A DNA stretch of 45,403 bases from Escherichia phage ECBP5. The translations under genes were made by a program, and so were the position numbers. The notes under the pieces were generated by a model. That model did not search any database. It was not told the origin of the DNA and saw only the letters and a program-made list of their open reading frames with translations. Positions within the stretch are counted from its first letter, which is position 1. Each line of letters starts with the position of its first letter. Positions 1,961-45,403 of the stretch are shown here, piece after piece. The stretch lies in sequence record NC_027330.1; one strand, written 5' to 3'.

Positions 1961-4594
1961 ATGTACACTAGCGATGAGCTTTACCAGAAACAACTTGAGC
2001 TAGAAGGGGAGATGCATGGCTACGGTGTTACTCGCTTTGACCGTAACAACCAACGTGCGATTGATAGCGGTACACCTTCAGACACTGATTGGAACCGCCG
2101 TTTACTTTCTAACTTCATTGAGCCTATGGTGAAGGGTATTAATGCTTATAAGGAGTACTACAAGACTAAAGCTGGACGGCCTACAGTGGCTTTAAAGTAC
2201 ATCCGGCAGGTGCAGCCAGAGCAAGCGGCATACATCGCCATTAAGAACATTCTGGATGTGCTGGGTAGTACAACATTTGATGCTAACTGGCTTGTTACCA
2301 CTATTGGGCGTAGGATTGAAGACCAAGTAAGATTTACTAAGCTTGAGGAGGCTGCACCTAAGTATGTAGGCAAGGTTAAGGATAGCTTAGCTAAGCGCAA
2401 CTCTCTCCAGTATGCACACCAGCATAAGGTACTGGTCGCTACTGAGAAGAAGCTAGCGGAGAATCCAGACCGTGCTCAGCTTGAGCTGCCACGCTGGCAG
2501 GAGTGGGCTGAGGAGGATTGCAAGCACGTTGGTAGCTTGCTGGTCAATATCTTTGAGCAGTGTATTCTGTTTGAGGGTGAGCCAGTAATCCGCAAGGAGG
2601 TGCAGACAGTTCGCAAAGGTACACTGGTCTTCATCAAGCCTACTGAGAAAGTTACCAAGTGGATTCATGAGTTCAGAGAGGCTATTGGCGGGCTTGCTCC
2701 AGCTTACGCACCTTGCGTAGTTCCTCCGCTTGATTGGACTTCCCCATTTACTGGCGGGTTCCATACTGAAGCTGTTAGCAGCACTCTACATCTTGCTAAG
2801 GTTCGCAACAAGCGCCACCTGCGCAAGCTGACTAAAGAGCAGATGCCAGCAGTCTACAAGGCTGTAAATAACTTGCAGAAAGTGCGCTGGCGTATCTCTG
2901 AGCGTGTACTGGCAACCGCTAATACACTAGTGGAGCTGGGCTTGCCTTATGCGCTGCCGTCAAAGGATGAAAGCGACTGGAAAGAAAAGAATCCATGCCC
3001 TGTACCTGAGTACCTGCAAGACCTGCGAGGCGAGCAGCTGAAAGCGGCGCTTACTGCCAGCCAGTGGGAGGCTTTTCAAGAGTGGAAACAACTGGCACGC
3101 CAGAACTACGACGAGGAGAGCGAGCGCGTAGCAAGCTTTAGGGAAGTTGTTCGTACTTTAGGGCAGGCTAACCGCTACGTTGGCTTTGATGCAATCTACT
3201 TTGTGTACACGCTGGACTTTCGCGGGCGTGTCTACTGCCAGAGCAGCCTTGTAAGCCCACAGGGTGGCGACTTGCAGAAAGCCCTCATCAAGTTTGCGGA
3301 TGGTATGAAGCTGGGTGAGCGCGGCGAGTACTGGTTCAAGGTGCATGGCGCTAACGAATGGGGCTGGGATAAGAAGACCTTTGATGAGCGCGTAGCTCTG
3401 GTCAGCGAACCTGAGTTCTGCGAGATGTGCCTAGACATTGCCAGTGACCCAGTGACCTTCAATGACTGGATTAAGGCCGATAAGCCGTGGCAGTTCCTCA
3501 ACTGGTGCTTTGAGTATGCTGACTTCCTGAAGCATGTGCAATCAGCTGGCAACCCACAGGACTTTGTAAGCTATATCCCTTGTGCAATGGATGGTTCTTG
3601 CTCTGGCATCCAGCACTACTCTGCAATGCTGCGCGATACTGTTGGCGGTACTGCTGTTAACTTGGTTAACTCTGACAAGCCTAATGACATCTACGGAGAG
3701 GTCTGCAAGGTGACTATTAAAGAGCTGCAAGCAATTGCTGACGGCTCACAGGTATATGACAGCAAGATTGACCCTGTATTAGCTCAGCAGCTGGCGCAGG
3801 AGTGGCTACGTCTGCAACCAAATCGCAGCCTGACCAAGAAACCTGTTATGACCCTGCCTTACGGCAGCACTCAGTTAACCTGCCGTGAGCATGTTAGCCA
3901 GTGGCTTAAAGATTTGCAGAAGGAGGAGAACAAGCGAGCTAAGGCAGAGTTCAGAGAGCCTATGAAGGTACACGCTTTCGGCGATGCAGACAGCGCTATG
4001 CCGCTAAAGTTTGCTGAGTCTCTTATGACTAGCATTGTTTGGCACTCTATCGGCAAGGTTGTAGTAGCTGCGAGGGCTGGTATGGCTTACATCAAAGCCG
4101 TAACAAGCTCAGTGGCTAAGATGAATATGCCGCTTGAGTGGACTACTCCAACAGGCTTTATTGTCCGTCAGGAGATTTACCAGTTCACAACACGTCAGGT
4201 AAATACTCAGCTGCTGGGTGGAACTAAGTTTGTGGTCAGCACTAAGAGTAAAGATATTGATTATCATCGTATGATTAACTCCTGTGCGCCTAACTTTGTT
4301 CACTCAATGGATGCGAGCCACCTTACACTGGCAACTAACTACTTTGCAGATGCAGGTATTAGCAGCATTGCAGTAATCCATGATAGCTTTGGCACACATG
4401 CAGGAGCCACTGACCTGCTGCGTGAGCGTCTGCGAGCTTCAATGGTAGATATGTACGAACAGCATGACGTTATCACTAACTTCCTTGCTGAAACTGAGGG
4501 CAGACTTATGACAGCTTTTGAGCACATTCGAGTGCCAGAGCGTGGTGAGCTGCAACTTGATAGCATTAATCAATCTACATACGCTTTTGCGTGA
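1961..4594 (+). CDS. Single-subunit DNA-directed RNA polymerase (T7 gene 1 homologue)
   Basis: 877 aa; T7 RNAP-like segments DGSCSGIQHYSAMLRD, APNFVHSMDASHL, HDSFGTHA and C-terminal ...YAFA. Confidence 0.95.
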   Translation: MYTSDELYQKQLELEGEMHGYGVTRFDRNNQRAIDSGTPSDTDWNRRLLSNFIEPMVKGINAYKEYYKTKAGRPTVALKYIRQVQPEQAAYIAIKNILDVLGSTTFDANWLVTTIGRRIEDQVRFTKLEEAAPKYVGKVKDSLAKRNSLQYAHQHKVLVATEKKLAENPDRAQLELPRWQEWAEEDCKHVGSLLVNIFEQCILFEGEPVIRKEVQTVRKGTLVFIKPTEKVTKWIHEFREAIGGLAPAYAPCVVPPLDWTSPFTGGFHTEAVSSTLHLAKVRNKRHLRKLTKEQMPAVYKAVNNLQKVRWRISERVLATANTLVELGLPYALPSKDESDWKEKNPCPVPEYLQDLRGEQLKAALTASQWEAFQEWKQLARQNYDEESERVASFREVVRTLGQANRYVGFDAIYFVYTLDFRGRVYCQSSLVSPQGGDLQKALIKFADGMKLGERGEYWFKVHGANEWGWDKKTFDERVALVSEPEFCEMCLDIASDPVTFNDWIKADKPWQFLNWCFEYADFLKHVQSAGNPQDFVSYIPCAMDGSCSGIQHYSAMLRDTVGGTAVNLVNSDKPNDIYGEVCKVTIKELQAIADGSQVYDSKIDPVLAQQLAQEWLRLQPNRSLTKKPVMTLPYGSTQLTCREHVSQWLKDLQKEENKRAKAEFREPMKVHAFGDADSAMPLKFAESLMTSIVWHSIGKVVVAARAGMAYIKAVTSSVAKMNMPLEWTTPTGFIVRQEIYQFTTRQVNTQLLGGTKFVVSTKSKDIDYHRMINSCAPNFVHSMDASHLTLATNYFADAGISSIAVIHDSFGTHAGATDLLRERLRASMVDMYEQHDVITNFLAETEGRLMTAFEHIRVPERGELQLDSINQSTYAFA

Positions 4595-4603
4595 GGTGAC
4601 AAG

Positions 4604-5008
4604 ATGGAAAACTTTAAAGTAACTGAGCTTGATGATGAATTCATTATTATCCAAGAGTATGCTTGGCAGCGTCCAGAAACTATCACAGTATCTATAACAG
4701 AGACTGATGAAGCTGGTAACACTAAATTGGTCAAAGAGTGGAAAGAGCAGCGCAAGCCAGAGAATAAAGAGCTTCTTGCTGACATCTATATCTTTAATAA
4801 AAGCCAGCTAGATATGATGCGGTGGAATTATCAACTAGGTAACTGTCCTATTACTCAGAAGGGCTTACGTCGCTACTCGCTGGCTTATGGAAGCGGTAAT
4901 AACTGGTTTGGTTGCCCAGCAAGGACAGCTAAGCAGATGCTTAAGAGAGGTGTAGCTATACCTAAAGAGCTGTATGGATTATTCACTCATGTAAATGGAG
5001 CCTACTAA
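4604..5008 (+). CDS. Hypothetical protein (134 aa)
   Basis: ORF with GAGGTGA RBS 6 nt upstream. Confidence 0.6.
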   Translation: MENFKVTELDDEFIIIQEYAWQRPETITVSITETDEAGNTKLVKEWKEQRKPENKELLADIYIFNKSQLDMMRWNYQLGNCPITQKGLRRYSLAYGSGNNWFGCPARTAKQMLKRGVAIPKELYGLFTHVNGAY

Positions 5009-6078: not shown

Positions 6079-6153
6079 AACAGGCGTTCCTACGTGAATA
6101 CTTTAAAATTTTGCGGGCGATTATCCGTCAGAATTTAAAGTTTTCTGAAAATC

Positions 6154-6175
6154 TTTAGGCACTACAATAGGGAGC
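6154..6175 (+). promoter_or_regulatory. Phage-RNAP promoter candidate (consensus copy)
   Basis: TTTAGGCACTACAATAGGGAGC; resembles the T7-class promoter layout (CACTA..ATAGG core, +1 G). Confidence 0.6.
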
Positions 6176-6274
6176 AAGCTAAGTAAGTTAAGTAAGCTAT
6201 AGTAAGCTAACTAAAGCTTAGTAAGCTCCCCTCTTTCCCTCTTTATAGAGGGATATAATATAGTAAGCCTTATC

Positions 6275-6375: not shown

Positions 6376-6528
6376 ATGCAAACTAGTATTAAGCCAGAGA
6401 AGATGCAGTCTAAGAAGCTACGTAAGCTGAATGAGAAGGAGCAAGAGGAGCTTGCAATCCGTCAGCAGCATAAGGGCAAGCACCATAAGACCCAGCGTGG
6501 CAAGCGCCCTGAGTGGGAGGCTTATTAA
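6376..6528 (+). CDS. Small basic hypothetical protein (50 aa)
   Basis: GGAG RBS upstream; K/R-rich; stop 2 nt before the primase-helicase ATG; not in ORF track. Confidence 0.45.
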   Translation: MQTSIKPEKMQSKKLRKLNEKEQEELAIRQQHKGKHHKTQRGKRPEWEAY

Positions 6529-6530
6529 GT

Positions 6531-8543
6531 ATGTCTATTGTTATGAACCTACCTTGTCCTGCCTGTCAAAAGAATGGTGCAGATAGGCATGGTAAATATT
6601 TGATGGTATTCAGTGACGGAGGAAAACTCTGCTTACATACTCACAACCATGATAACCGTGAGCGCTACTATGAGCCACCAGATGGTAAAGACCCTGTGTT
6701 TGACCGTGAGATTGATGGCAAGGTTCAGTATTCTCCTGAGCAGTTCCGCAAGCTGGAATCAGATGGCAAGCTGAGTGATTCTTTTACTCGTCATCTGGCT
6801 ATGTCTGGTATGAGGATGAAAGACCGCTATGAGATTCTCACTGATGATGAGCGCACAGCTCTGGAGAATGAGTGGCGCATGGACATGGAGTGGTTTGATG
6901 GTCTTTCCTTTAAGTCACTAGCTGACCGTGGCATACACGGACTAATCGCCAAGCTTTATAATGTGCGAGTGGGTCATGATGAGTCTGGTAAAGTCGTCCG
7001 TCACTACTACCCTACTTATGACAGCCAGCTCAATCTGATTGGAGCTAAGTGTCGTACACTGCCTAAAGAATTTATGTTCGGGCATCTTGGTCGTCGCTTT
7101 GGTGATACTGCATTGTTCGGTATTCATACCCAGCAGGCTGTACTTGATAGTGGTACGTTCAAGAAAGGTAAGATGGGTAAGCTGCTGGTAGTTGGCGGTG
7201 AGTGCGATGCGATGGCAGCTCAGCAGATGCTTGTCAAGAGTCTCAATAAGCTTGAGCAGTTCAATGGGCTGAAGTCACTTGATGGCCTGCGTCTGGCTCA
7301 TGTGTGGTCGCCAACTAAAGGCGAGACAGCACTAGAGGAGATAGTAGCTAACCGTGAATACCTCAATCAGTTTGAGGATATTGTATGGGGCTTTGATAAT
7401 GACGATGTAGGCAACAAGCTTAACCTTGACTGCTCCCGCCTGTTCAGACAGAAGTCTAAGTTCTTTAACTACCCAGCTGGGTGCAAGGATGCCAATGACT
7501 GCCTGCTCAAAGGTAGAGAGAAAGAGTTTGTAGATGCATGGTGGCAGCCAGCAGAGGCTAGAGTTAAGGGCAAGCTGCGAGAGGCTGGTCACTACGCTAA
7601 GCGAGCTAAGCAAGCTGTAGAGATGGGCTTGTCATACTTCTGTGAAGCTCTCAACATGATTACATTTGGTATTCGCCTGCGTTACTTGTCTGTGTGGGGT
7701 GCGGGTACTGGTGTTGGTAAGACTGAGATTACTACTCAGCATATTACTAGCCTTATCAAGCAAGGTAAGCCAGTGGTAGCTATCTACCTTGAGAACAGTC
7801 CAGAAGAAGTCCTCAAGATGGTGGCAAGCCAGATGGCTAACAAGGACTTTATGAGTCCACCACTAGGTGAGGATGATGAGTACGATGCATCTAGGGATTA
7901 CACTCAAGAGGAATTAGACGCTACAATAGATGACTTAGTAGCAACTGGCTTGCTTATCATACCGGACCTTGAAGGTAGTAAGGATGTAAACGTAATAATG
8001 GAAGTCCTTGAAGATGCATTAGCATTAGGCTACCAGTATTATGTTATTGATAACCTGACAGCCTTTGAGCACTACGTAGATGGTAAGGTTCAAGTGGGTG
8101 TAGCTGCTATTGATGAGACTATGAAGCGCATCGGTACGTTTAAGGATGAGCATGACGTCAACATTATGCTTCTCACTCACTTAAGTAGACCAGAGAAAGG
8201 CCGTGACCCTCATGAGCTTGGTGGTGAAGTCTATATCACTGACTTACGTGGTGCAGGCTCTATCAGCTTTTGGGCTAATGGTGTATGGGGCATCGAGCGT
8301 AATACACAGGCTGAAGCTATCAGTGACAAGTGTACTACGCTGCTGCGTAACCTCAAGTCTCGTGGTGTAGGCCACAAGGTAGGCTCCACAGTTGTGCTCC
8401 GCAAGGACATTACAACTGGTGAGTTTGAGTACCTTGAAGGTGTTCATGAGCTGCCTCAGGTTGGCAGGAAGAAGAAGGAGAGCAAGCGTGATGCGCAAGC
8501 TCAACGGTTTATTGATGATGCAGATACTGACGGAGAGTTCTAA
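6531..8543 (+). CDS. Bifunctional DNA primase-helicase (T7 gp4-like)
   Basis: N-terminal Cys4 zinc ribbon CPACQ...CLHTHNH, TOPRIM-like acidic motifs, Walker A GAGTGVGKTE, acidic C-terminus ending in Phe (DTDGEF); start set at ATG 6531 (GGGAGG RBS) rather than GTG 6513. Confidence 0.92.
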   Translation: MSIVMNLPCPACQKNGADRHGKYLMVFSDGGKLCLHTHNHDNRERYYEPPDGKDPVFDREIDGKVQYSPEQFRKLESDGKLSDSFTRHLAMSGMRMKDRYEILTDDERTALENEWRMDMEWFDGLSFKSLADRGIHGLIAKLYNVRVGHDESGKVVRHYYPTYDSQLNLIGAKCRTLPKEFMFGHLGRRFGDTALFGIHTQQAVLDSGTFKKGKMGKLLVVGGECDAMAAQQMLVKSLNKLEQFNGLKSLDGLRLAHVWSPTKGETALEEIVANREYLNQFEDIVWGFDNDDVGNKLNLDCSRLFRQKSKFFNYPAGCKDANDCLLKGREKEFVDAWWQPAEARVKGKLREAGHYAKRAKQAVEMGLSYFCEALNMITFGIRLRYLSVWGAGTGVGKTEITTQHITSLIKQGKPVVAIYLENSPEEVLKMVASQMANKDFMSPPLGEDDEYDASRDYTQEELDATIDDLVATGLLIIPDLEGSKDVNVIMEVLEDALALGYQYYVIDNLTAFEHYVDGKVQVGVAAIDETMKRIGTFKDEHDVNIMLLTHLSRPEKGRDPHELGGEVYITDLRGAGSISFWANGVWGIERNTQAEAISDKCTTLLRNLKSRGVGHKVGSTVVLRKDITTGEFEYLEGVHELPQVGRKKKESKRDAQAQRFIDDADTDGEF

Positions 8544-8728
8544 TGATTGACACCCTTATTAAAATGTTCAAATTGGCGAGGGCTAACCCCGATGCCTTCT
8601 GTGATGGCGGTACAGTAGGTGAAAAGTGCTCTGGCATTAGTTGCCATGACTGCCCCTTCTCCTCAACCTCTAATCTTAATGCAACAATTGTTGAGCTTGA
8701 GAAAGCTCAGGAGAAACAAGATGTCTGA
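8543..8728 (+). CDS. Small Cys-rich hypothetical protein (61 aa)
   Basis: TAATG overlap with the helicase stop. Confidence 0.45.
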   Translation: MIDTLIKMFKLARANPDAFCDGGTVGEKCSGISCHDCPFSSTSNLNATIVELEKAQEKQDV

Positions 8729-8966
8729 AGTTAAAATCAGTGTACAAGTTTTCCCTAAACTTGCAGTAGAAGGGGAGGAGCATACTGTTACCCGTGTAGT
8801 TGCAACAGCTGACTGTGGTGATACAGGCTATTCAAGCGAGGAGTACCTTGTAGACCAAGCAGTAGAGAAGCTTGAAGGGTTTAATCGCGAGGATGTTATT
8901 GCAGCAACTAAGCGTGAAATACTGCGCGAGCTGACTGTTATCCTTGTAGCTAACGGAGTGCTATAA
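8721..8966 (+). CDS. Hypothetical protein (81 aa)
   Basis: GGAGAAAC RBS before ATG 8721; the ORF-track start at 8619 would overlap the upstream gene. Confidence 0.5.
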   Translation: MSEVKISVQVFPKLAVEGEEHTVTRVVATADCGDTGYSSEEYLVDQAVEKLEGFNREDVIAATKREILRELTVILVANGVL

Positions 8967-9145
8967 TGAAACGCATCACTGTTAAGAAAGGCGGCTTGTG
9001 GTACTTCATCACCCTGTTCACTCGCTATGGCGAGAAGCTCATGGTTAAGAACGTAACTGATGAGGAAACTGTCAGTCAGTATGGTCTTAGTTATGTAGTA
9101 TCAGAAGTTTACAAGGCACACAACGAGGTAATAGGTAACGTATGA
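8966..9145 (+). CDS. Small hypothetical protein (59 aa)
   Basis: Start/stop overlaps on both sides; not in ORF track. Confidence 0.4.
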   Translation: MKRITVKKGGLWYFITLFTRYGEKLMVKNVTDEETVSQYGLSYVVSEVYKAHNEVIGNV

Positions 9146-9366
9146 AGCCATTCAAAGATGTTGAAGATGGAGAGGTTTTCGTTGTTGATGGTGGTTTTGA
9201 ATTAAAGCGAGTCTCTGAATCCTCTGAGTATAATGCAGTGTTTACTGATTCAACTGATATAGGTGTTAATATCCCCTTTGATGAGACTACTTATACAGTA
9301 GATGAGTTTTCAAAATTACCAAAACCTGAACAGGAGATACTATTTGAAACCAGCAATTCTTACTAA
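9142..9366 (+). CDS. Acidic hypothetical protein (74 aa)
   Basis: ATGA overlap with upstream ORF. Confidence 0.5.
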   Translation: MKPFKDVEDGEVFVVDGGFELKRVSESSEYNAVFTDSTDIGVNIPFDETTYTVDEFSKLPKPEQEILFETSNSY

Positions 9367-9385
9367 CGCTAACGTTGGCCTCAAG

Positions 9386-9541
9386 ATGTCTGACCTTGAG
9401 GCTCGTGCTCGTGCTGGCGACCCTTGGGCGCAGGCTCAGCTGACTAAGCAAGCTATGGGCTTTGCTAACGCCATGCAAGCTGATGTCCGTGAGGGAGCTG
9501 ACATGCAAGACCGCAAGGACTTGCTGCTTATTAATCGATAA
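9386..9541 (+). CDS. Small hypothetical protein; alternative start at 9302
   Basis: In-frame ATGs at 9302 (overlapping upstream gene) and 9386; neither has a strong RBS. Confidence 0.4.
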   Translation: MSDLEARARAGDPWAQAQLTKQAMGFANAMQADVREGADMQDRKDLLLINR

Positions 9542-9578
9542 GCCACTTCGGTGGCTTTAGTATAGTGTACTAGACTGG
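9541..9578 (+). terminator. Hairpin with TTCG loop plus partial palindrome-family copy
   Basis: GCCAC-TTCG-GTGGC followed by TTT, then AGTGTACTAGACTGG. Confidence 0.4.
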
Positions 9579-9585
9579 AGTTAAT

Positions 9586-9855
9586 ATGAAGAAGACTCAT
9601 GTAGAGTTGTGGGCTTTTGGCAGTAATGGTCAGTTAGTTGCAACTGGTCTGGTCACACCAGCTGGTGTTTGCGGCTCTTTGTTTAAGAACTTCCCATGTG
9701 CTTATGGCGAGAGTGCAAGTCCACTAAGTGGTATGATTAAAGTTGATGGGAACTTTGGGTATGGTGTCACTGATAAATCAGAGCTTGAGTGGAAGTTACG
9801 TGCTAAGCGAACCTACCGTGCAGTCCGTTTCCAACGTGTTATTGTAGACTTCTGA
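9586..9855 (+). CDS. Hypothetical protein (89 aa)
   Basis: ORF following an intergenic hairpin. Confidence 0.55.
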   Translation: MKKTHVELWAFGSNGQLVATGLVTPAGVCGSLFKNFPCAYGESASPLSGMIKVDGNFGYGVTDKSELEWKLRAKRTYRAVRFQRVIVDF

Positions 9856-9863
9856 GGTGAATC

Positions 9864-10136
9864 ATGGTTAAAGATACTAGCTGGCAGGCTTACCAAGAAA
9901 TCCTGCGCGGTGGTGTGGCTGTTAAGCAAGCTGAGAAAGTCTTGCAAGTTATTAACTACTTCCCTGAAGGTGTTACCCGTGCTCAGTTGGCTCAGGGTAT
10001 GAACATGCCAATCAACTCAGTTTGTGGTCGTGTCAACGAGCTGCTGAAAGCTGAGGTAATCTATGTGTCAGGTACTGGTAAGTGTCCAGTAACTGGTAGG
10101 ACTGTTGAGATGCTGAAGGTGGTTGAGTATGAGTAA
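9864..10136 (+). CDS. Putative winged-helix DNA-binding protein (90 aa)
   Basis: Helix-turn-helix-like segment VTRAQLAQGMNMPINSVCGRVNELLK followed by a beta-hairpin-like YVSGTGKCPVTGRTVEM; assignment by eye only. Confidence 0.5.
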   Translation: MVKDTSWQAYQEILRGGVAVKQAEKVLQVINYFPEGVTRAQLAQGMNMPINSVCGRVNELLKAEVIYVSGTGKCPVTGRTVEMLKVVEYE

Positions 10137-10815
10137 TATTATCGCAGGCGCTATTGAGCTTGAAGAAGCAAAAGAATCCAAGGCCAAAAGCTTCAGTGTA
10201 GAAGATGTGCTTAAGAAGATTAAGGAGCACACGTTTGGCTGTGTAGTAGCTGGTGGTTATTGTCGTGACGTGTTTCATGGGGTGGCACATAAGGACATTG
10301 ACATCTGCATGTATAACTTCCACCCAAATGATGCTGGCGAGGTTGTCTTAGCTAATATGTTGTGGAAGTGGTTATCAACCAATGTTGCTGCTGAGAACAT
10401 TACAGCAACTAGTGGGGAGGACTATGATGACAAGCGCATACATTTTGTATGGCATCTTCCCTATCACAATGTGGACATCATCTGCTGGAACGCACACTCC
10501 CATACAAAAGTATTAAGTGGCTTTGACTGCAACCTTAATCAGTTCTACTTGCCGTCAACTGTTCCTTACTTTGATGGTGAGTCTGAGTATACACCAGACA
10601 TCAAGGAACACCCTGTATACTTTGGAGATGATTGCCCTGACTTCTTATTATTCCTTAAAGATCTACCCGATGAACGTGTAACTAAGATGGTTCAGAAGCA
10701 TCAGGCATTCTACCCAGCAGCTTGGTGTGGAACACAGGAGCCTGTTGTCTACTTTGATAAGATGCAAGGCTTTCCATGTGGGTTTGATGAAGACTTAGAT
10801 GAGATAGCTTGGTAA
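10123..10815 (+). CDS. Pol-beta-superfamily nucleotidyltransferase, CCA-adding/poly(A) polymerase head-domain type (230 aa)
   Basis: GGYCRDVFHGVAHKDIDI matches the GGxVRD...KDxD signature of the tRNA nucleotidyltransferase/PAP family; downstream FDCNLNQ resembles a degenerate RRDxTIN motif. Confidence 0.6.
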   Translation: MSMSNIIAGAIELEEAKESKAKSFSVEDVLKKIKEHTFGCVVAGGYCRDVFHGVAHKDIDICMYNFHPNDAGEVVLANMLWKWLSTNVAAENITATSGEDYDDKRIHFVWHLPYHNVDIICWNAHSHTKVLSGFDCNLNQFYLPSTVPYFDGESEYTPDIKEHPVYFGDDCPDFLLFLKDLPDERVTKMVQKHQAFYPAAWCGTQEPVVYFDKMQGFPCGFDEDLDEIAW

Positions 10816-10826
10816 CGTGAGGTAAT

Positions 10827-13412
10827 ATGAATAACTTTCCGTCAATGTTTGCCAATAAAGCTGACCGCCCCTCTGGTAAGGGGCGCTTTCTTGTTGGTGA
10901 CCTAGAGGGTGTAGGGCTTGTCAGGGCTATTCGTAAGCCGTCTGACATTCACGTCATCACCCTGCAAGATTACTTTAGCGGTGACTACTGGATTTTCTTC
11001 GACCCTATTGAGAATCGAATCAACCCTAGTGAGCTGCAAATGGAAGGTGAGCAGGATGGCTACATTGAGGATGGTGTTCGTATGCTCATGGAGTCAGAAG
11101 CTTTCTGCTTCCAGAACGGGGTAGGCTTTGACTTGCATGTGTTTGAGAAATGCTTCCCGTGGTTCAAGTATAACTACTTGGAGTCACGAGCAGCTAGACC
11201 ACATGCTGACATCTTCCCGTTTAAGTTTATGGATACCATGCTGGTTAGCCAGCTGACTTATCCAGACCGTCCATTGCCACCACAAGCTTACGCCATCGGA
11301 GCAGGTAATACAGGTCCGCATAGTATTGCAGCTCATGGTATCCGCATGGGTCGCTATAAGCCTGACCATGAGGACTGGTCTACCCTTACTGATGCAATGA
11401 TTCACCGTAACGTGGAAGACGTTGCTATCGGTACTGACATGCTTAAGTGGCTCATGGAGGGTGACTGGGCTGAGCAGAAAGCTCGTGGCCTTAACAAGAC
11501 TACTGGCTGCGGCATCGAGACTGCTTATCAGATGGAGCAGCAAGTAGCGCTCATGATTAGCCGTCAGGAGCAGCGTGGGTTCCGCTTTGATATGGCACAG
11601 GCTTACAAAGACTTCTGTACCATTGATAAGGAGATGGAAGATACAGCAGCTGCTGTTGACCCACTTATCCCACTCAGGCTGGTCACTAAGCCTTATAAGT
11701 TTGCTGACCTTAAATCAAGGTATGATGCACTTCTTAAATCTGGTCTGCTTGAGAATAGTAATCAAGATGATTTAGCTGCTTGGGGTTTATTGAGGCCATG
11801 TGATGTTAAAGACTTCTTCAATGGCATCCATCAGACCATGAAAGCTATGGGCGATGAAGCTCGCATGGGTGACAAGGCTACTATGTGGTCTTTGACAACC
11901 AAGAACGGTGACTACGGCAAGCGCCTGCAAGGTTACTTCCCTGAGATGCGGGGTAACATCAATGATACTCATGACCCTCTTGTAGCTGGTGCATTCACTC
12001 CAATTAGCTTTGAGCATATAGGATTGGGTAACCTTGACTACATCAAAGAGAAGGTGCTGTATCCGCTGGGCTGGCGTGGTGTTAACTTGTCTGACTCTGA
12101 GCAAGAGTGGTATGACGAGCATGGCACAACACGCTATCCGTGGGCTGGTAAGATTGATGATGACTCGCTTGAGCTGTGGAAGAAGAAGCAGGAAGTGCCA
12201 GAGTGGGCGCAGCAGGTTGTTAACTACTACATCTTACGCTCACGTCGCTCAGTTATCCTGAACCGTGGCGACCTTGACCACTTCCTTGAGAAGGGTCAGT
12301 GGCCTAAGCAGAAGAATGGGCGTCATGAATGTCGTGGCCTGCTGGCAGTAGCTTACTGCAAAGAGCATGACATGATGGCTATGGAATACTTTGCTAAGTT
12401 CCGTGAGTGGCCTACATCTGAGGATGAGGACTGGCGTGTACCAGCAGCGGCTTTCAGCATTGGTACTAACACGTTCCGTATGCGTCATCGCTTTGTGGTT
12501 AACATACCTGCTCGTGGGCTGTGGCCTCTGCGTCACCTGTTCATTGCATCCAAGGGTAAGCTTATCTTAGGCTGTGATGGGGCTGGACTTGAGCTGCGTA
12601 TGCTTAGTCACTTTATGAATGACCCTGAGTATCAGGACATCATTCTCACTGGTGACATTCATACACACAACCAGCTCAAAGCAGGCTTGCCTACTCGTGA
12701 TATGGCTAAGACATTCATCTATGCATTCCTGTATGGCTCAGGGATTGATGGCCTAGCTCGCTTGGCTGGCATTAGCTTTAGTGAGATGGAGCAGTGTATT
12801 GCTCGCTTCAAGGCAGAGCTACCTGCACTTGCTAAGCTCATTGAGCGTGTGGAAAATGCTGGTCGCAAGTTCGGATACCTGCAAGCTATTGATGGTAGAT
12901 GGGGTCGTATCCGTCGTAAGAATGGTAAGCCACTGCTGCACACTGCACTTAACGTATTGCTTCAGATGACAGGCTCTCTGGTCATGAAGTATGGTGAGTG
13001 CATCGCTGAGACTCAGATGATTGAGGAAGGAGTTGCATTAGATGATAAAGGCTATCCAGCTTTCGTGGCTAACGTACACGATGAAGTCCAGATGGAAGTC
13101 TCTGAAGATGAAGTTGATGTTATGGACTACACGTTGCCATATACACTTGATGGATTCGAGAATGAGAAGAAAGCTATCAAGGCAGTCTTTGATGTTGAAG
13201 AGAAGCGAGCGCACACAGATGATAGTGGGCGTAAGTGGTCAGCAGCTATCAAGGTTTCTGCTGCTGATGGTACTATCCATTGTCGCAGGTACTATCATCG
13301 AGCTGGTCACATCCTTATGGATGCTTTCGAGGCTGCTGGTGTTAAGTTCAACATGAGATGCCCACTTGCTGGTGAATATAAGATAGGTCGTAACTGGCAC
13401 GATACTCACTAG
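10827..13412 (+). CDS. DNA polymerase, family A, with 3'-5' exonuclease domain
   Basis: Exo I-like VGDLEG; motif A DGAGLELR; motif B RDMAKTFIYAFLYG; motif C VHDE; 861 aa. Confidence 0.93.
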   Translation: MNNFPSMFANKADRPSGKGRFLVGDLEGVGLVRAIRKPSDIHVITLQDYFSGDYWIFFDPIENRINPSELQMEGEQDGYIEDGVRMLMESEAFCFQNGVGFDLHVFEKCFPWFKYNYLESRAARPHADIFPFKFMDTMLVSQLTYPDRPLPPQAYAIGAGNTGPHSIAAHGIRMGRYKPDHEDWSTLTDAMIHRNVEDVAIGTDMLKWLMEGDWAEQKARGLNKTTGCGIETAYQMEQQVALMISRQEQRGFRFDMAQAYKDFCTIDKEMEDTAAAVDPLIPLRLVTKPYKFADLKSRYDALLKSGLLENSNQDDLAAWGLLRPCDVKDFFNGIHQTMKAMGDEARMGDKATMWSLTTKNGDYGKRLQGYFPEMRGNINDTHDPLVAGAFTPISFEHIGLGNLDYIKEKVLYPLGWRGVNLSDSEQEWYDEHGTTRYPWAGKIDDDSLELWKKKQEVPEWAQQVVNYYILRSRRSVILNRGDLDHFLEKGQWPKQKNGRHECRGLLAVAYCKEHDMMAMEYFAKFREWPTSEDEDWRVPAAAFSIGTNTFRMRHRFVVNIPARGLWPLRHLFIASKGKLILGCDGAGLELRMLSHFMNDPEYQDIILTGDIHTHNQLKAGLPTRDMAKTFIYAFLYGSGIDGLARLAGISFSEMEQCIARFKAELPALAKLIERVENAGRKFGYLQAIDGRWGRIRRKNGKPLLHTALNVLLQMTGSLVMKYGECIAETQMIEEGVALDDKGYPAFVANVHDEVQMEVSEDEVDVMDYTLPYTLDGFENEKKAIKAVFDVEEKRAHTDDSGRKWSAAIKVSAADGTIHCRRYYHRAGHILMDAFEAAGVKFNMRCPLAGEYKIGRNWHDTH

Positions 13413-13433
13413 TATTAAGCACTACAATAGGTA
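13413..13433 (+). promoter_or_regulatory. Phage-RNAP promoter candidate
   Basis: TATTAAGCACTACAATAGGTA immediately after the DNAP stop. Confidence 0.5.
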
Positions 13434-13461
13434 TAACAAACTAACTAACCAAGGAGTTATT

Positions 13462-13716
13462 ATGTGGAATATTATCTTTGAAGTATTAGCATTCTTCTTC
13501 TGTACTGTGTGCTTCTACCGTATTGCCAAGTGTTATGGTGATAAATTCAAATCTGCACTAGCTAACATGAAGCGTACTGAAAAACGTGAGCATCGTTATA
13601 ATTTTGCTGATTATCTAGAATTTCGTCAGTATCGTCTTGCTGCTATTTTATTTAAGGTAGCCACTTACGTATGCCTGTACTTTGCCTTGCTTAACTTATC
13701 AGCATTACTTAACTAA
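13462..13716 (+). CDS. Small hydrophobic (membrane?) protein (84 aa)
   Basis: Two hydrophobic segments; followed by hairpin CTCCCTC-TACT-GAGGGAG plus TTT. Confidence 0.5.
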   Translation: MWNIIFEVLAFFFCTVCFYRIAKCYGDKFKSALANMKRTEKREHRYNFADYLEFRQYRLAAILFKVATYVCLYFALLNLSALLN

Positions 13717-18052: not shown

Positions 18053-18640
18053 ATGAAAGACACTTATATCTTTGACTTGGATGGTACATTAGCTTGCGGT
18101 AAACACCGCTTGCATCTGCTCCCAACTAAGGATACTGCACACCGTACAGAAGCTTGGGATAGTTTCAATCTTGCTGCTGGTGGTGATTCTCCAATCCTTG
18201 ACAACATCCGACTGATGAATGAATTGTTCCAGTTTGGTAAGCGTATCATCATCCTGTCTGGTCGTTGTGATGTAGCTAAGGCTATTACTGAGAAGTGGCT
18301 GTGGGAACATGGCTGTAACTTCAATCAGCTTATTATGCGCCCAGCAGCTGACCATCGTCGTGATATTGAGTTCAAGGAAGAGAAGCTGCGTGATATTGGC
18401 CTTGAGCGAATTGTAGCTTGCTTTGATGACCTTGAGCATGTTGCCAAGCACATCCGTAGCTTGGGTGTTACTTGTCATCTTGTCACTCACTACGACACTA
18501 ATTGTGTGTCAGTGAGCCAACATGTTCGCTACCCTGAGCCAAAGACTGATGATGATAACTTGTGGGATACAGAGGAAGGTGCAACTTTCAATGAAGGTTA
18601 TAACCAAGCTATTGAAGACACCAAGGAGCTTAATAAATGA
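18053..18640 (+). CDS. HAD-family phosphatase resembling the 3'-phosphatase domain of T4 polynucleotide kinase
   Basis: HAD motif I FDLDGTL; ILSGR, KEEKL and DDLEHV segments parallel the T4 Pnk phosphatase domain. Confidence 0.8.
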   Translation: MKDTYIFDLDGTLACGKHRLHLLPTKDTAHRTEAWDSFNLAAGGDSPILDNIRLMNELFQFGKRIIILSGRCDVAKAITEKWLWEHGCNFNQLIMRPAADHRRDIEFKEEKLRDIGLERIVACFDDLEHVAKHIRSLGVTCHLVTHYDTNCVSVSQHVRYPEPKTDDDNLWDTEEGATFNEGYNQAIEDTKELNK

Positions 18641-19203
18641 TTGTAATTCTTAATGCTCCACCGGCATCTGGTAAAGATACCATTGGAGGAATCTTAGCTG
18701 ACTGGCATGGCTGGAAAGCTCTTAGCTTCAAGAAGCCTATGTTTGACTTAGCTAAGTCTCTACTAGGTGAAGAGAAGTATGCACAGTTCCTTGAGTTGTA
18801 CAATGACCGCAGCACTAAGGACAAGCCTACTAGTCTTTGTGGTGGGCTGTCACCTCGTGACTTCTTCATCCATATCTCTGAGAAGATGTGCAAGCCACTG
18901 TTTGGTGAACAATACTTTGGTGAGCGCTTCCTTGAGCTGGTTAGCAATGAGGTAACTACTGTAGTTACTGATGGCGGCTTCCCTCAGGAAGTTCGTCCAA
19001 TGCTGGATGCAGGTCATAAGGTTGTTATTGTACGCTTGTTCCGCAAGGGCTATGACTTCTCTAATGACTCACGCCGCTACTTAACTGAGCAGGATTTCTC
19101 AGACTTGCCAACCTTCCGTAGCCCTTCATTCCTTGATGTTGAGCTTACAGAGGGTCATCCTTATCGTGCAGCTGATTACATCTTTAATAAGCTAGAGGGT
19201 TAA
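18637..19203 (+). CDS. P-loop nucleotide/polynucleotide kinase (T4 dNMP kinase-like)
   Basis: P-loop NAPPASGKDT resembles T4 gp1 dNMP kinase SGKDT; ATGA overlap with the phosphatase gene. Confidence 0.7.
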   Translation: MIVILNAPPASGKDTIGGILADWHGWKALSFKKPMFDLAKSLLGEEKYAQFLELYNDRSTKDKPTSLCGGLSPRDFFIHISEKMCKPLFGEQYFGERFLELVSNEVTTVVTDGGFPQEVRPMLDAGHKVVIVRLFRKGYDFSNDSRRYLTEQDFSDLPTFRSPSFLDVELTEGHPYRAADYIFNKLEG

Positions 19204-19204
19204 T

Positions 19205-20158
19205 ATGAACGTATTTGAGTTCCTTGGCTACCCAGCTGACCACCGACCTAAGAGCAAGGTTGTGCAGCTGGTTAAGCATTGGGATGAAGTACCTGAAAGC
19301 CGTAAGCAGTATCCGTATTATGCGCAGGTCAAGAAAGACGGTGTGTTTGGTATTGTTGTGGTAACTAAAGATGATGATGGCAACATTGCTGTTTCTGTCT
19401 TCGGTCGCACAGGTGAGCAGCTCAGTAACACTGAGGCAATCTGCTCACGCTTCCTTGAAGGTTACATTGCTGAGGGCATCTACATTGGAGAGGTGCTTAC
19501 TCAATCTCCATGTAGCCTTGAGGAGCTGTCAGGTATCCTCAACCCTAATCGTGTCAATAAGCTGGACATCAATCAGGAAGTTATCAAGTGGAACTTGTAC
19601 ATTGCTCTGCATGATTGCTTAACTGAAAAGATGTTCATAGCTGGCACATCAGCTGGCATCAGCTACCACACACGCCACGCTAGCTTGATGAAGCGTATTG
19701 CAGGTACTGACCTAGAGGAAAGCGCACTACCTTACACAGTCATTCACGATGACAAGCAGAAGGAACAGTTCACTAAAGCTTGCATTGCTGCTGGGGAGGA
19801 GGGTGCAGTCTACAAGCGTCCTGGCTGTGAGTGGGAAGCTGGTCATAAAGGCTGGCATCAGATGAAGGAAGTACGTGAGGTAACGTATGACCTAAAGTGT
19901 GTAGGCTACGAGGAAGGGTCAGGCAAGTACAAAGGAAAGGTCGCTAACCTTATCTTCCAATGGAGAGATGGTGAGTCTATTAAGGCCATGCTTGGTAAGG
20001 GCTATACCCACAAGGATGCTGAAGATATGTTCAATGACCCAAGCTTGTTTATGCATAAGGTCTTCCGTATTCGTGGCCTGCAAGATAGTAGCAAAGGCAA
20101 GATTAGATTACCTAAAGTACAAGAGGAACGTTATGACAAAGTTACCGGAGATTATTAG
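19205..20158 (+). CDS. ATP-dependent DNA ligase
   Basis: Ligase motif I KKDGV, motif IV EGAVYK, motif V WHQMKEV. Confidence 0.9.
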   Translation: MNVFEFLGYPADHRPKSKVVQLVKHWDEVPESRKQYPYYAQVKKDGVFGIVVVTKDDDGNIAVSVFGRTGEQLSNTEAICSRFLEGYIAEGIYIGEVLTQSPCSLEELSGILNPNRVNKLDINQEVIKWNLYIALHDCLTEKMFIAGTSAGISYHTRHASLMKRIAGTDLEESALPYTVIHDDKQKEQFTKACIAAGEEGAVYKRPGCEWEAGHKGWHQMKEVREVTYDLKCVGYEEGSGKYKGKVANLIFQWRDGESIKAMLGKGYTHKDAEDMFNDPSLFMHKVFRIRGLQDSSKGKIRLPKVQEERYDKVTGDY

Positions 20159-43033: not shown

Positions 43034-43486
43034 CTAGTGGCTGGTCAGGCAGCTGCTGTGAGCTGGCTAGGTGGCTTACGGATAGCCGATTGTGAGCAGC
43101 CAGTGAGCCGCTGTGGGCTTCAGCTCCGCTGTGGCTACGGTTGGCTTGCCAGTGGCTTGAGGCGCTCTGTGAGCTGCTGAGGGCTGTGGCTTGCTGTACT
43201 CGTGTGCTAGTACGCTGCTGTGTGTATCTGTCTTTAGTCTGATGGGCTACTGTCTTTAGTTTGCTGCACCACTGGTAGCTTATTGGGTAGCTCATAGGTA
43301 GCTTACAAGGCTCACAGCTTGCTGGTACTACTGAGGGCTTACTAGGTAGCTTGCTATCACTGACTAGGTAGCTGCTGTTAGTTCACTAGGTAGCTAGCTA
43401 TGGCTTACTAGGTAGTTACTAGGTGGATTGATGTAAGCTTACTCAAGCTCTCTCTTAGTGCATCATTCGATGCACAATATAAGAAG

Positions 43487-43510: not shown

Positions 43511-43588
43511 AGTACGCCTTGCCAACAGCTCTCATGAGCTATCTAGGTGGCTTACTATCACTTACATCCAACTAACTAGGAGGCTTAC

Positions 43589-45192: not shown

Positions 45193-45403
45193 ATGAGCAG
45201 GGAATTATCTTTAAGGTTTAATGAATCTAATAAGCGCATGGATGCATTGCTAAGTGCAATGAATAGGGCTAACCCTCTATCAGTAGAGTATGAGGAGCTT
45301 AGTAAAATGGCTCACAGCGAGTTGCAAACAATGCAAGCTATTAACAACAGCTCATTGCAACAACTAGAAATGCACTGGACAACCTCAGGTGACTTTAGCC
45401 ACC
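45193..45403 (+). CDS. Early hypothetical protein, 5' portion (continues at 1..234 across the wrap-around)
   Basis: ATG at 45193 one base after the upstream stop; open to the window end. Confidence 0.5.
   Translation, partial: MSRELSLRFNESNKRMDALLSAMNRANPLSVEYEELSKMAHSELQTMQAINNSSLQQLEMHWTTSGDFSH
45196..45403. repeat. Exact duplicate of 1-208
   Basis: Identical to window start. Confidence 0.9.

Follow-up and report, generated by a model that had tools for sequence, protein, structure and literature searches.

A minimal class II-type nucleotidyltransferase with a conserved catalytic center and degenerate specificity motifs in the replication module of Escherichia phage ECBP5

In the class II nucleotidyltransferases (NTases), which comprise CCA-adding enzymes as well as poly(A) polymerases, the RRD motif senses the ribose (2'-OH), the EDxxR motif provides a protein template by which first C and then A is chosen, and the body and tail domains hold the tRNA. 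The cellular enzymes, such as E. coli Cca, the B. stearothermophilus CCA-adding enzyme (1MIV), and E. coli poly(A) polymerase (3AQL), are 390-470 amino acids (aa) long, as against 228 aa for the protein analyzed here, the NTase encoded at 10129..10815 of Escherichia phage ECBP5 (NC_027330.1; the whole stretch of 45,403 nucleotides [nt] is called the window below). It further differs from them in the absence of the body and tail, in having xFD in place of RRD, in the reduction of EDxxR to a single arginine (R183), and in possessing a wrap of its own, formed by residues 140-210. Phage proteins of this kind have been described before. Among the Autographiviridae, Evseev et al. (2020; PMC7693777) recorded a 'tRNA nucleotidyltransferase' for 37 of the 46 Pectobacterium phages and for about 60 of more than 500 others, and read the family as tRNA nucleotidyltransferases while leaving the function open. 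According to Spruit et al. (2020; PMC7291057), induction of Klebsiella phage fHe-Kpn01 Gp22, a 182-aa protein predicted to be similar to CCA-adding enzymes and reported to carry the h[DE]h pattern, stops the growth of E. coli. Gp22 belongs to the same wider family as the ECBP5 NTase (hhalign 99.5%, E=2e-22), with which it shares the GGxxRD, KDxD, hDh, and FDCNLN motifs and the LK..S..R..M..K helix, but it is only 24% identical, lies downstream of the DNA polymerase gene, and has no winged-helix neighbor; toxicity has been shown for Gp22 only. There is also a likeness to MenT and AbiEii (DUF1814), which are small Pol-β-fold NTases, some of them paired with a winged-helix protein (AbiEi), the relative Gp22 being likewise toxic. 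Small NTases such as MenT are reported to modify the 3' ends of tRNA while lacking large RNA-binding domains (PMC7450476, PMC10435456).

By profile comparison and predicted structure, the ECBP5 NTase is a minimal class II (CCA-adding/PcnB-type) nucleotidyltransferase of the Pol-β fold in which the catalytic carboxylates are intact and motif B is degenerate; this bears out the CCA/PcnB-type assignment made in the initial annotation. This assignment depends on an alignment of 87 diverse family members with 20-59% identity to the ECBP5 protein (hereafter A2), over whose columns all residue counts below were taken. The gene and its motifs are:

10129..10815, + strand: coding sequence (CDS) of the minimal class II-type NTase, 228 aa plus stop (GenBank AID17675.1/YP_009146392.1)
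10252..10302, + strand: motif A, G42 G43 Y C R46 D47 ... K55 D56 I D58, with the nucleotide-binding GG turn and two metal-binding carboxylates
10474..10476, + strand: D116, a putative third carboxylate of the catalytic center, in an h[DE]h pattern on strand 115-120 of the model
10522..10542, + strand: motif B remnant F132 D133 C N135 L N137 Q138, placed by hhalign of A2 against E. coli Cca
10669..10710, + strand: helix 181-194 with R183, K186, and K190, the remnant of the motif D/E helix (hhalign, predicted model)

The relationship becomes detectable only after the diverse A2 profile is built, single-sequence searches being nearly blind to it. With the NTase sequence alone, no Pfam family was matched at E<=1, so the PF01743/PolyA_pol gathering score was not reached; a phmmer search of the PDB returned noise only; and the CCA/PcnB models of NCBIfam matched just the motif A stretch (E=0.03-0.15). 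Likewise, hhalign of a profile from the alignment A1 against E. coli Cca yielded a probability of 5%. An exhaustive profile search covering 1.84 billion representatives (cut-off E<=1e-3, clusters at 50% identity) recovered relatives in 463 clusters, and all 150 that were listed are short (74-292 aa). Run against solved structures, the A2 profile retrieves class II CCA-adding enzymes (E=1e-10) and E. coli poly(A) polymerase (E=4.5e-7), and its hhalign comparison with E. coli Cca spans 140 columns (E=3e-5). The Pfam PolyA_pol and Foldseek comparison suggested at the outset thus had a divided outcome: the query by itself is without a Pfam match, but 35 of the 87 A2 members match the PolyA_pol head domain at E<=0.01 (best 6e-6), and the hallmarks of the Pol-β fold (the hG[GS] turn, [DE]h[DE]h and, on a mixed β sheet, a further carboxylate of the h[DE]h pattern) are all present in the ECBP5 protein. 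Structure and sequence together give CCA-, CC-, and A-adding enzymes as the nearest relatives; ANT(2'')-Ia (about 177 aa) is also among the Foldseek matches (E about 5e-3). The stand-alone bacterial 'CCA-adding enzyme head domain' protein NP_344798.1 (PDB 2LA3, 191 aa), which is of cellular origin, is absent from the A2 profile matches to solved structures, so that no sequence-profile relationship between it and the phage family was detected. The PHROG_1614 profile, named 'nucleotidyltransferase', matches the ECBP5 protein over its full length (E=4.8e-48), with residues 16-227 aligned to positions 15-221 of the 268 in the profile. Many close homologues (P0002, P0003, P0023, and others) carry the precomputed Pfam label PF26128.2, which is absent from the Pfam copy used here and from the literature searched; a newer Pfam family covering this protein may hence already exist.

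The catalytic center, consisting of motif A and the third carboxylate on strand 115-120, is intact as judged from the alignment and the predicted model. G42, G43, R46, D56, and D58 occur in all 87 relatives and D47 in 85, while position 116 is D in 85 and E in the other two. In the hhalign comparison the GGYCRD...KDIDI stretch aligns with GGAVRD...KDRDW of E. coli Cca, and motif A also aligns with the CCA enzymes of T. maritima, Arabidopsis, and Planococcus. The same comparison places FDCNLNQ on RRDLTINA of E. coli Cca, with the D and N kept and both arginines gone, and thereby confirms the earlier reading of GFDCNLN as a degenerate RRD-like motif; the loss is family-wide, with position 131 never being R, and with F132 (80/87), D133 (85/87), N135 (81/87), and N137 (87/87) forming the conserved remnant. 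Further downstream, the family consensus L-R-D-V-S-x-x-R-x-x-K-M-x-x-K aligns with the Cca motif D/E helix segment LRHVSP...; R183 is found in 86 of the 87 relatives and K or R at position 186 in 65. EDxxR is down to this one arginine, the segment bearing the Glu-Asp being deleted relative to Cca, and the tRNA-binding body and tail (or leg) domains are absent. Because RRD, the Glu-Asp of EDxxR, and the body and tail are all missing, a canonical CCA-adding mechanism appears unlikely. Residues 140-210 instead form a conserved, family-specific, mostly non-helical wrap in the predicted model, with a high predicted local distance difference test score (pLDDT).

The open reading frame (ORF) called mechanically at 10123-10815 encodes 230 aa from a TTG codon; the ORF of the initial annotation therefore exists, but with a mechanical start in place of the biological one. 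The true start is almost certainly the ATG at 10129, giving 228 aa, because AAGGTGG precedes it, all homologues start with MSNI or MSDI, and GenBank has the 228-aa protein. A look-up of this exact sequence returns the name 'nucleotidyltransferase [Escherichia phage ECBP5]'. A ratio of nonsynonymous to synonymous substitution rates (dN/dS) of 0.13-0.21 indicates purifying selection. The gene is real and correctly read and, from the conservation of its motifs, its product is probably active.

Such a gene had been regarded as unusual cargo for a T7-like phage, a view that does not hold: it is a recurrent accessory gene of the Autographiviridae, already annotated and in print (PMC7693777, PMC7291057). 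The Autographiviridae family PHROG_1614 includes, beside the ECBP5 NTase, PP99 gp21, LIMEzero ORF22, PPPL-1 gp22, and a protein of LKD16; PP99 gp21 shows 69% identity to the ECBP5 protein and occupies the same position in the replication module, and proteins of the ECBP5/PP99 clade extend further at the C-terminus, reaching about 228 aa, than most of the family (median 194 aa). In a tblastn search the gene was found in 73 phage records, including phages of Pseudomonas, Escherichia, Pantoea, Pectobacterium, Klebsiella, Edwardsiella, Alteromonas, and Aeromonas, many of which are already labeled 'nucleotidyltransferase', 'tRNA nucleotidyltransferase', or 'pcnB'; other relatives are annotated 'tRNA maturase'. 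A library of viral structures yielded 70 matches at E<=1e-3, the strongest of them being small Autographiviridae proteins (from LKD16, LIMEzero, PP2, DU_PP_II, phiAS7, and Cd1). The novelty of the ECBP5 protein is accordingly low, it and its family being already annotated and discussed. With 463 clusters at 50% identity and presence in roughly one in five or six Autographiviridae, a small, abundant phage NTase that retains its active site and lacks the known specificity elements is a reasonable, if not urgent, biochemical target.

ECBP5 belongs to the genus Gajwadongvirus of the Autographiviridae. Within the phage collection searched, it is closest to Vibrio phage JSF38 (about 94%), followed by Pectobacterium phage PP99 (about 91%). 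The exact 208-bp direct terminal repeats at 1-208 and 45196-45403 indicate that the window is a complete linear T7-like genome. The features that define the setting of the NTase gene are:

6153..6176, + strand: phage RNA polymerase promoter-like repeat, the nearest one upstream of the primase-to-DNA polymerase block
10827..13412, + strand: CDS of the family A DNA polymerase, 861 aa, annotated in PP99, Roth32, and other relatives

The DNA polymerase CDS begins 12 nt downstream of the NTase gene, and in all seven phage lineages checked the NTase adjoins either the DNA polymerase or the primase/helicase. It is directly upstream of the polymerase in ECBP5, PP99, LIMEzero, and LF82-23, one small ORF away from it in the metagenomic P0052, directly downstream of it in fHe-Kpn01 (Gp22), and at or near the upstream side of the primase/helicase in PPPL-1 and H4/4. 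The contigs of two distant members were also inspected, and both are phage-like. In Klebsiella phage Roth32, the region corresponding to 10143-10812 is replaced by an unrelated 174-nt segment with a 45-aa ORF, the junctions falling at gene boundaries and the flanks being 86-96% identical; the NTase is absent as well from vB_Kp_Z1, MR4, RCIP0053, and RCIP0089. It is a dispensable, swappable accessory gene in the replication module. The window has nine 24-nt copies of a TATTAGGCACTACAATAGGAATAG-like repeat (at 6153, 13413, 14610, 14756, 18008, 24008, 34886, 38283, and 43487), which probably represents the promoter consensus of the phage RNA polymerase. The copies at 6153 and 13413 bracket the primase/helicase-to-DNA polymerase block (6513-13412), the latter copy directly following the DNA polymerase stop codon. 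Scans of 8400-13600 for sigma-70 promoters and intrinsic terminators found nothing above shuffled expectation that would separate the NTase from its neighbors.

We propose, at a probability of about 0.45, that the ECBP5 NTase is an active template-independent 3'-terminal nucleotidyltransferase that operates on RNA ends without CCA-type specificity and is encoded by an independent accessory middle gene. The protein would have descended from the head domain and neck stub of class II CCA-adding enzymes or poly(A) polymerases, retaining their two-metal catalytic center (GGxxRD...DxD with the third Asp) and losing the RRD motif that senses the ribose, the Glu-Asp from the base template EDxxR, and the body and tail that serve as a ruler for the tRNA. 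Because the catalytic center is kept while these specificity elements are lost, it may add one or a few nucleotides to accessible RNA 3' ends, either the tRNA acceptor or those of other transcripts, with no CCA-type counting. This would bring it closer to a free-standing tailing enzyme in the style of PcnB or MenT than to a repair-grade CCA enzyme. The promoter-like repeat near 6153 probably drives the gene together with the middle (replication) genes, and the role of its product might be the manipulation of host RNA or tRNA, or counter-defense; tRNA 3' ends and RNA tails are recognized battlegrounds between bacteria and phages. Overproduction of PcnB is toxic, and we know of no report of toxic Cca overproduction. 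Because of the former, and because MenT-type small NTases poison tRNA 3' ends, the toxicity of Gp22 would, by analogy, fit uncontrolled tailing better than repair.

Several points weigh against this proposal. We infer the enzymatic activity, the use of RNA 3' ends as the acceptor, and the biological role alike, the acceptor and the nucleotide by pure inference, and a literature search for the enzymology of any member of the family found none. The loss of the RRD arginines could equally mean the use of deoxynucleoside triphosphates (dNTPs) or a chemistry that does not involve nucleic acids. Gp22 is only 24% identical to the ECBP5 protein, and toxicity on over-expression is non-specific; a lytic phage that relies on host translation also gains nothing obvious from damaging tRNA. 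The ECBP5 NTase is, moreover, strongly acidic (isoelectric point [pI] 4.8, net charge -19; family median pI 4.86) and has no obvious basic RNA-binding surface, which is weak evidence; we dropped the charge as a decisive argument against RNA binding, the head and neck of E. coli Cca being acidic too (pI 5.1-5.3).

Among the alternatives, the one that survives best, doubtful as we hold it, is that the acceptor is not RNA. The enzyme could extend DNA 3' ends with dNTPs, helping replication or end protection in the manner of a terminal transferase, or it could nucleotidylate a protein or small molecule: a host factor might be AMPylated, a metabolite inactivated, or a signaling nucleotide synthesized or decoyed. 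The use of dNTPs would be in keeping with the absence of the RRD arginines throughout the family, the size and domain plan resemble those of ANT(2'')-Ia, and the strongly acidic surface is atypical of a nucleic-acid binder, although support from the fold scores is weak and no particular non-RNA substrate is indicated by a fused or co-conserved partner. The position beside the DNA polymerase or primase/helicase in the seven lineages would also suit it, but this adjacency may reflect only a slot for middle accessory genes. In T7, the 4.x accessory genes, including an inhibitor of a toxin-antitoxin (TA) system, lie between the primase/helicase and the DNA polymerase. The map legend of Evseev et al. 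places the NTase between the same two genes (PMC7693777).

It is unlikely, in our estimate, that this phage branch has acquired a new job that canonical class II enzymes cannot do, whether the counter-defensive re-extension or capping of tRNA or other RNA 3' ends or a dNTP-using terminal transferase activity alongside the replisome. If so, re-extension or capping would act on ends hit by Cas12a3 cleavage, toxSAS pyrophosphorylation, or extension by MenT/AbiEii.

Quite unlikely is a role in genuine tRNA 3'-end repair, in which the enzyme would add CCA or the terminal A to restore acceptor ends that host nucleases or immune effectors had trimmed or blocked, and so keep translation going during infection. 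This would agree with CCA-, CC-, and A-adding enzymes being the closest relatives and with the annotation of family members as 'tRNA nucleotidyltransferase' or 'tRNA maturase', in line with the interpretation of Evseev et al. (PMC7693777). Immune attack on tRNA 3' ends has also been documented, for Cas12a3 (PMC12851939), toxSAS (PMC11559606), and MenT/AbiEii. The same elements that argue for tailing nonetheless argue against repair: the C-then-A template of EDxxR is gone except for one arginine, RRD is xFD across the family, and the absence of the body and tail domains that would contact the tRNA elbow leaves no ruler; toxicity, as seen with Gp22, would not be expected of a repair enzyme either. 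The ECBP5 genome has no tRNA genes, and on this ground the maturation of phage-encoded tRNAs was rejected as a function. A possible link to end healing comes from a downstream gene cluster:

18053-18640, + strand: stand-alone HAD_PNKP-type polynucleotide 3'-phosphatase (Pfam E=2.5e-15, motif DLDGTL)
18637-19203, + strand: T4 gp1-like P-loop protein of the deoxynucleoside monophosphate kinase type (SGKDT)
19205-20158, + strand: ATP-dependent DNA ligase

The phosphatase could supply 3'-OH ends for repair, and the gene of one distant NTase family member is separated by 1.4 kb from that of a full-length Pnkp; but the phosphatase occurs in 1070 phage records, including all sister phages that lack the NTase, and the two are thus uncoupled. 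An end-healing pathway combining the NTase, phosphatase, kinase-like ORF, and ligase was rejected for the same distribution and since the 'kinase' is not of the Pnkp type. The distant member, P0141, is a 292-aa protein with a 130-aa N-terminal extension, encoded on a metagenomic phage-like contig (L011) on which the pair formed by its gene and the Pnkp gene (AAA_33 + HAD_PNKP) occupies 1550-2503 and 3950-4828; it is the single case of NTase/Pnkp proximity and lies outside the Autographiviridae.

The remaining alternative concerns the gene immediately upstream of the NTase:

9864..10136, + strand: CDS of the 90-aa winged-helix protein ECBP5_0020, PHROG_1123 (E=3e-27)
10129..10136, + strand: 8-nt overlap ATGAGTAA between the winged-helix stop and the NTase start, read from the sequence and preceded by AAGGTGG

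GenBank names this ORF 'hypothetical protein ECBP5_0020'. Its description as winged-helix-like agrees with an AlphaFold2 model of H1-S1-H2-H3-S2-wing-S3 topology (pLDDT 81; H22-32, a bridge at 36, H39-46, H50-62, E66-73, and E80-86), while its sequence matches to winged helix-turn-helix families are all sub-threshold (RPA_C, E=0.024; MarR_2, E=0.094; TcaR/Lrp/RPA32, E=0.2-0.9); one relative has a precomputed PF12840 assignment. The gene is under purifying selection (dN/dS 0.21-0.31), and it does overlap the NTase start as had been noted, sharing 8 nt with it, so that translational coupling of the two is possible.

The initial annotation had raised the possibility of a regulatory or toxin-like pair, in which the two would form a unit as an AbiEi/AbiEii-like antitoxin and toxin, as enzyme and regulator, or with the winged-helix protein as a subunit supplying the missing substrate-binding domain. 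The overlap suggests coupling, the genes are adjacent in ECBP5, JSF38, PP99, KL01, 6939, Reminis, VL73, Edwardsiella phages, and one metagenomic relative, and a toxic member in the family makes a neutralizer conceivable. Their distributions nevertheless come apart. By tblastn, the NTase turns up in 73 phage records but the winged-helix gene in just 18, co-occurrence hence not being obligate and most NTase-bearing phages lacking the winged-helix gene; conversely, Roth32, vB_Kp_Z1, MR4, RCIP0053, and RCIP0089 keep the latter intact and under selection (dN/dS 0.31) without an NTase. The NTases of LIMEzero, LF82-23, PPPL-1, H4/4, and fHe-Kpn01, the toxic Gp22 among them, have unrelated upstream neighbors. 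Divergence from PP99 at synonymous sites differs between the two genes (1.0 for the NTase, 0.43 for the winged-helix gene), the ECBP5 NTase does not have the make-up of a DUF1814-type toxin, and the PADLOC defense/TA models, AbiE included, gave no match for either protein, a result on which a defense/TA classification was rejected. A conserved palindrome upstream of the winged-helix gene, near phage promoters, suggests a DNA-binding role of its own. By this comparison of sequences and neighborhoods the pairing is lineage-specific and the NTase independent of the winged-helix gene, and we regard a functional unit of the two as highly improbable.

This palindrome, the perfect 16-bp GTCTAGTACACTAGAC, is present, with <=1 mismatch allowed on one strand, at seven sites in the window (16 nt each, at 1372, 6034, 6314, 9560, 14567, 39338, and 43697), against 0.5 expected by chance. 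The sites are mostly intergenic, several are near phage promoters, and their syntenic positions are conserved in PP99; there, one site precedes the winged-helix gene at a distance of about 27 nt, and Roth32 has a site at the corresponding position. The palindrome might serve the winged-helix protein as an operator or, alternatively, be an RNA hairpin or processing site. Its conservation a short way upstream of the winged-helix gene makes it plausible that the encoded protein binds DNA or acts as a regulator in its own right. In ECBP5, an 89-aa ORF (ECBP5_0019, 9586-9855, + strand) is inserted between the palindrome and the winged-helix gene. It is not found at this position in JSF38, PP99, or Roth32, belongs to no Pfam or PHROG family, and has 18 homologues in metagenomic contigs of Autographiviridae size; it looks like another swappable accessory cassette.

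Just before this palindrome and just after the stop codon of the preceding ORF lies a UUCG-tetraloop hairpin (9540-9557, + strand; AGCCAC-UUCG-GUGGCU, about -10 kcal/mol) followed by UUUAGU, although the surrounding 55-nt region does not fold significantly better than shuffled sequences (z = -1.46). A weaker look-alike of the TATTAGGCACTACAATAGGAATAG repeat, TTAGGCACTCCAATAG, follows the palindrome at about 6335. Near-tandem 22-nt repeats carrying CTAGGTAGCT are located at 43325-43415 and 43526-43572, close to the right end and upstream of the terminal repeat, and are possibly linked to replication or packaging.

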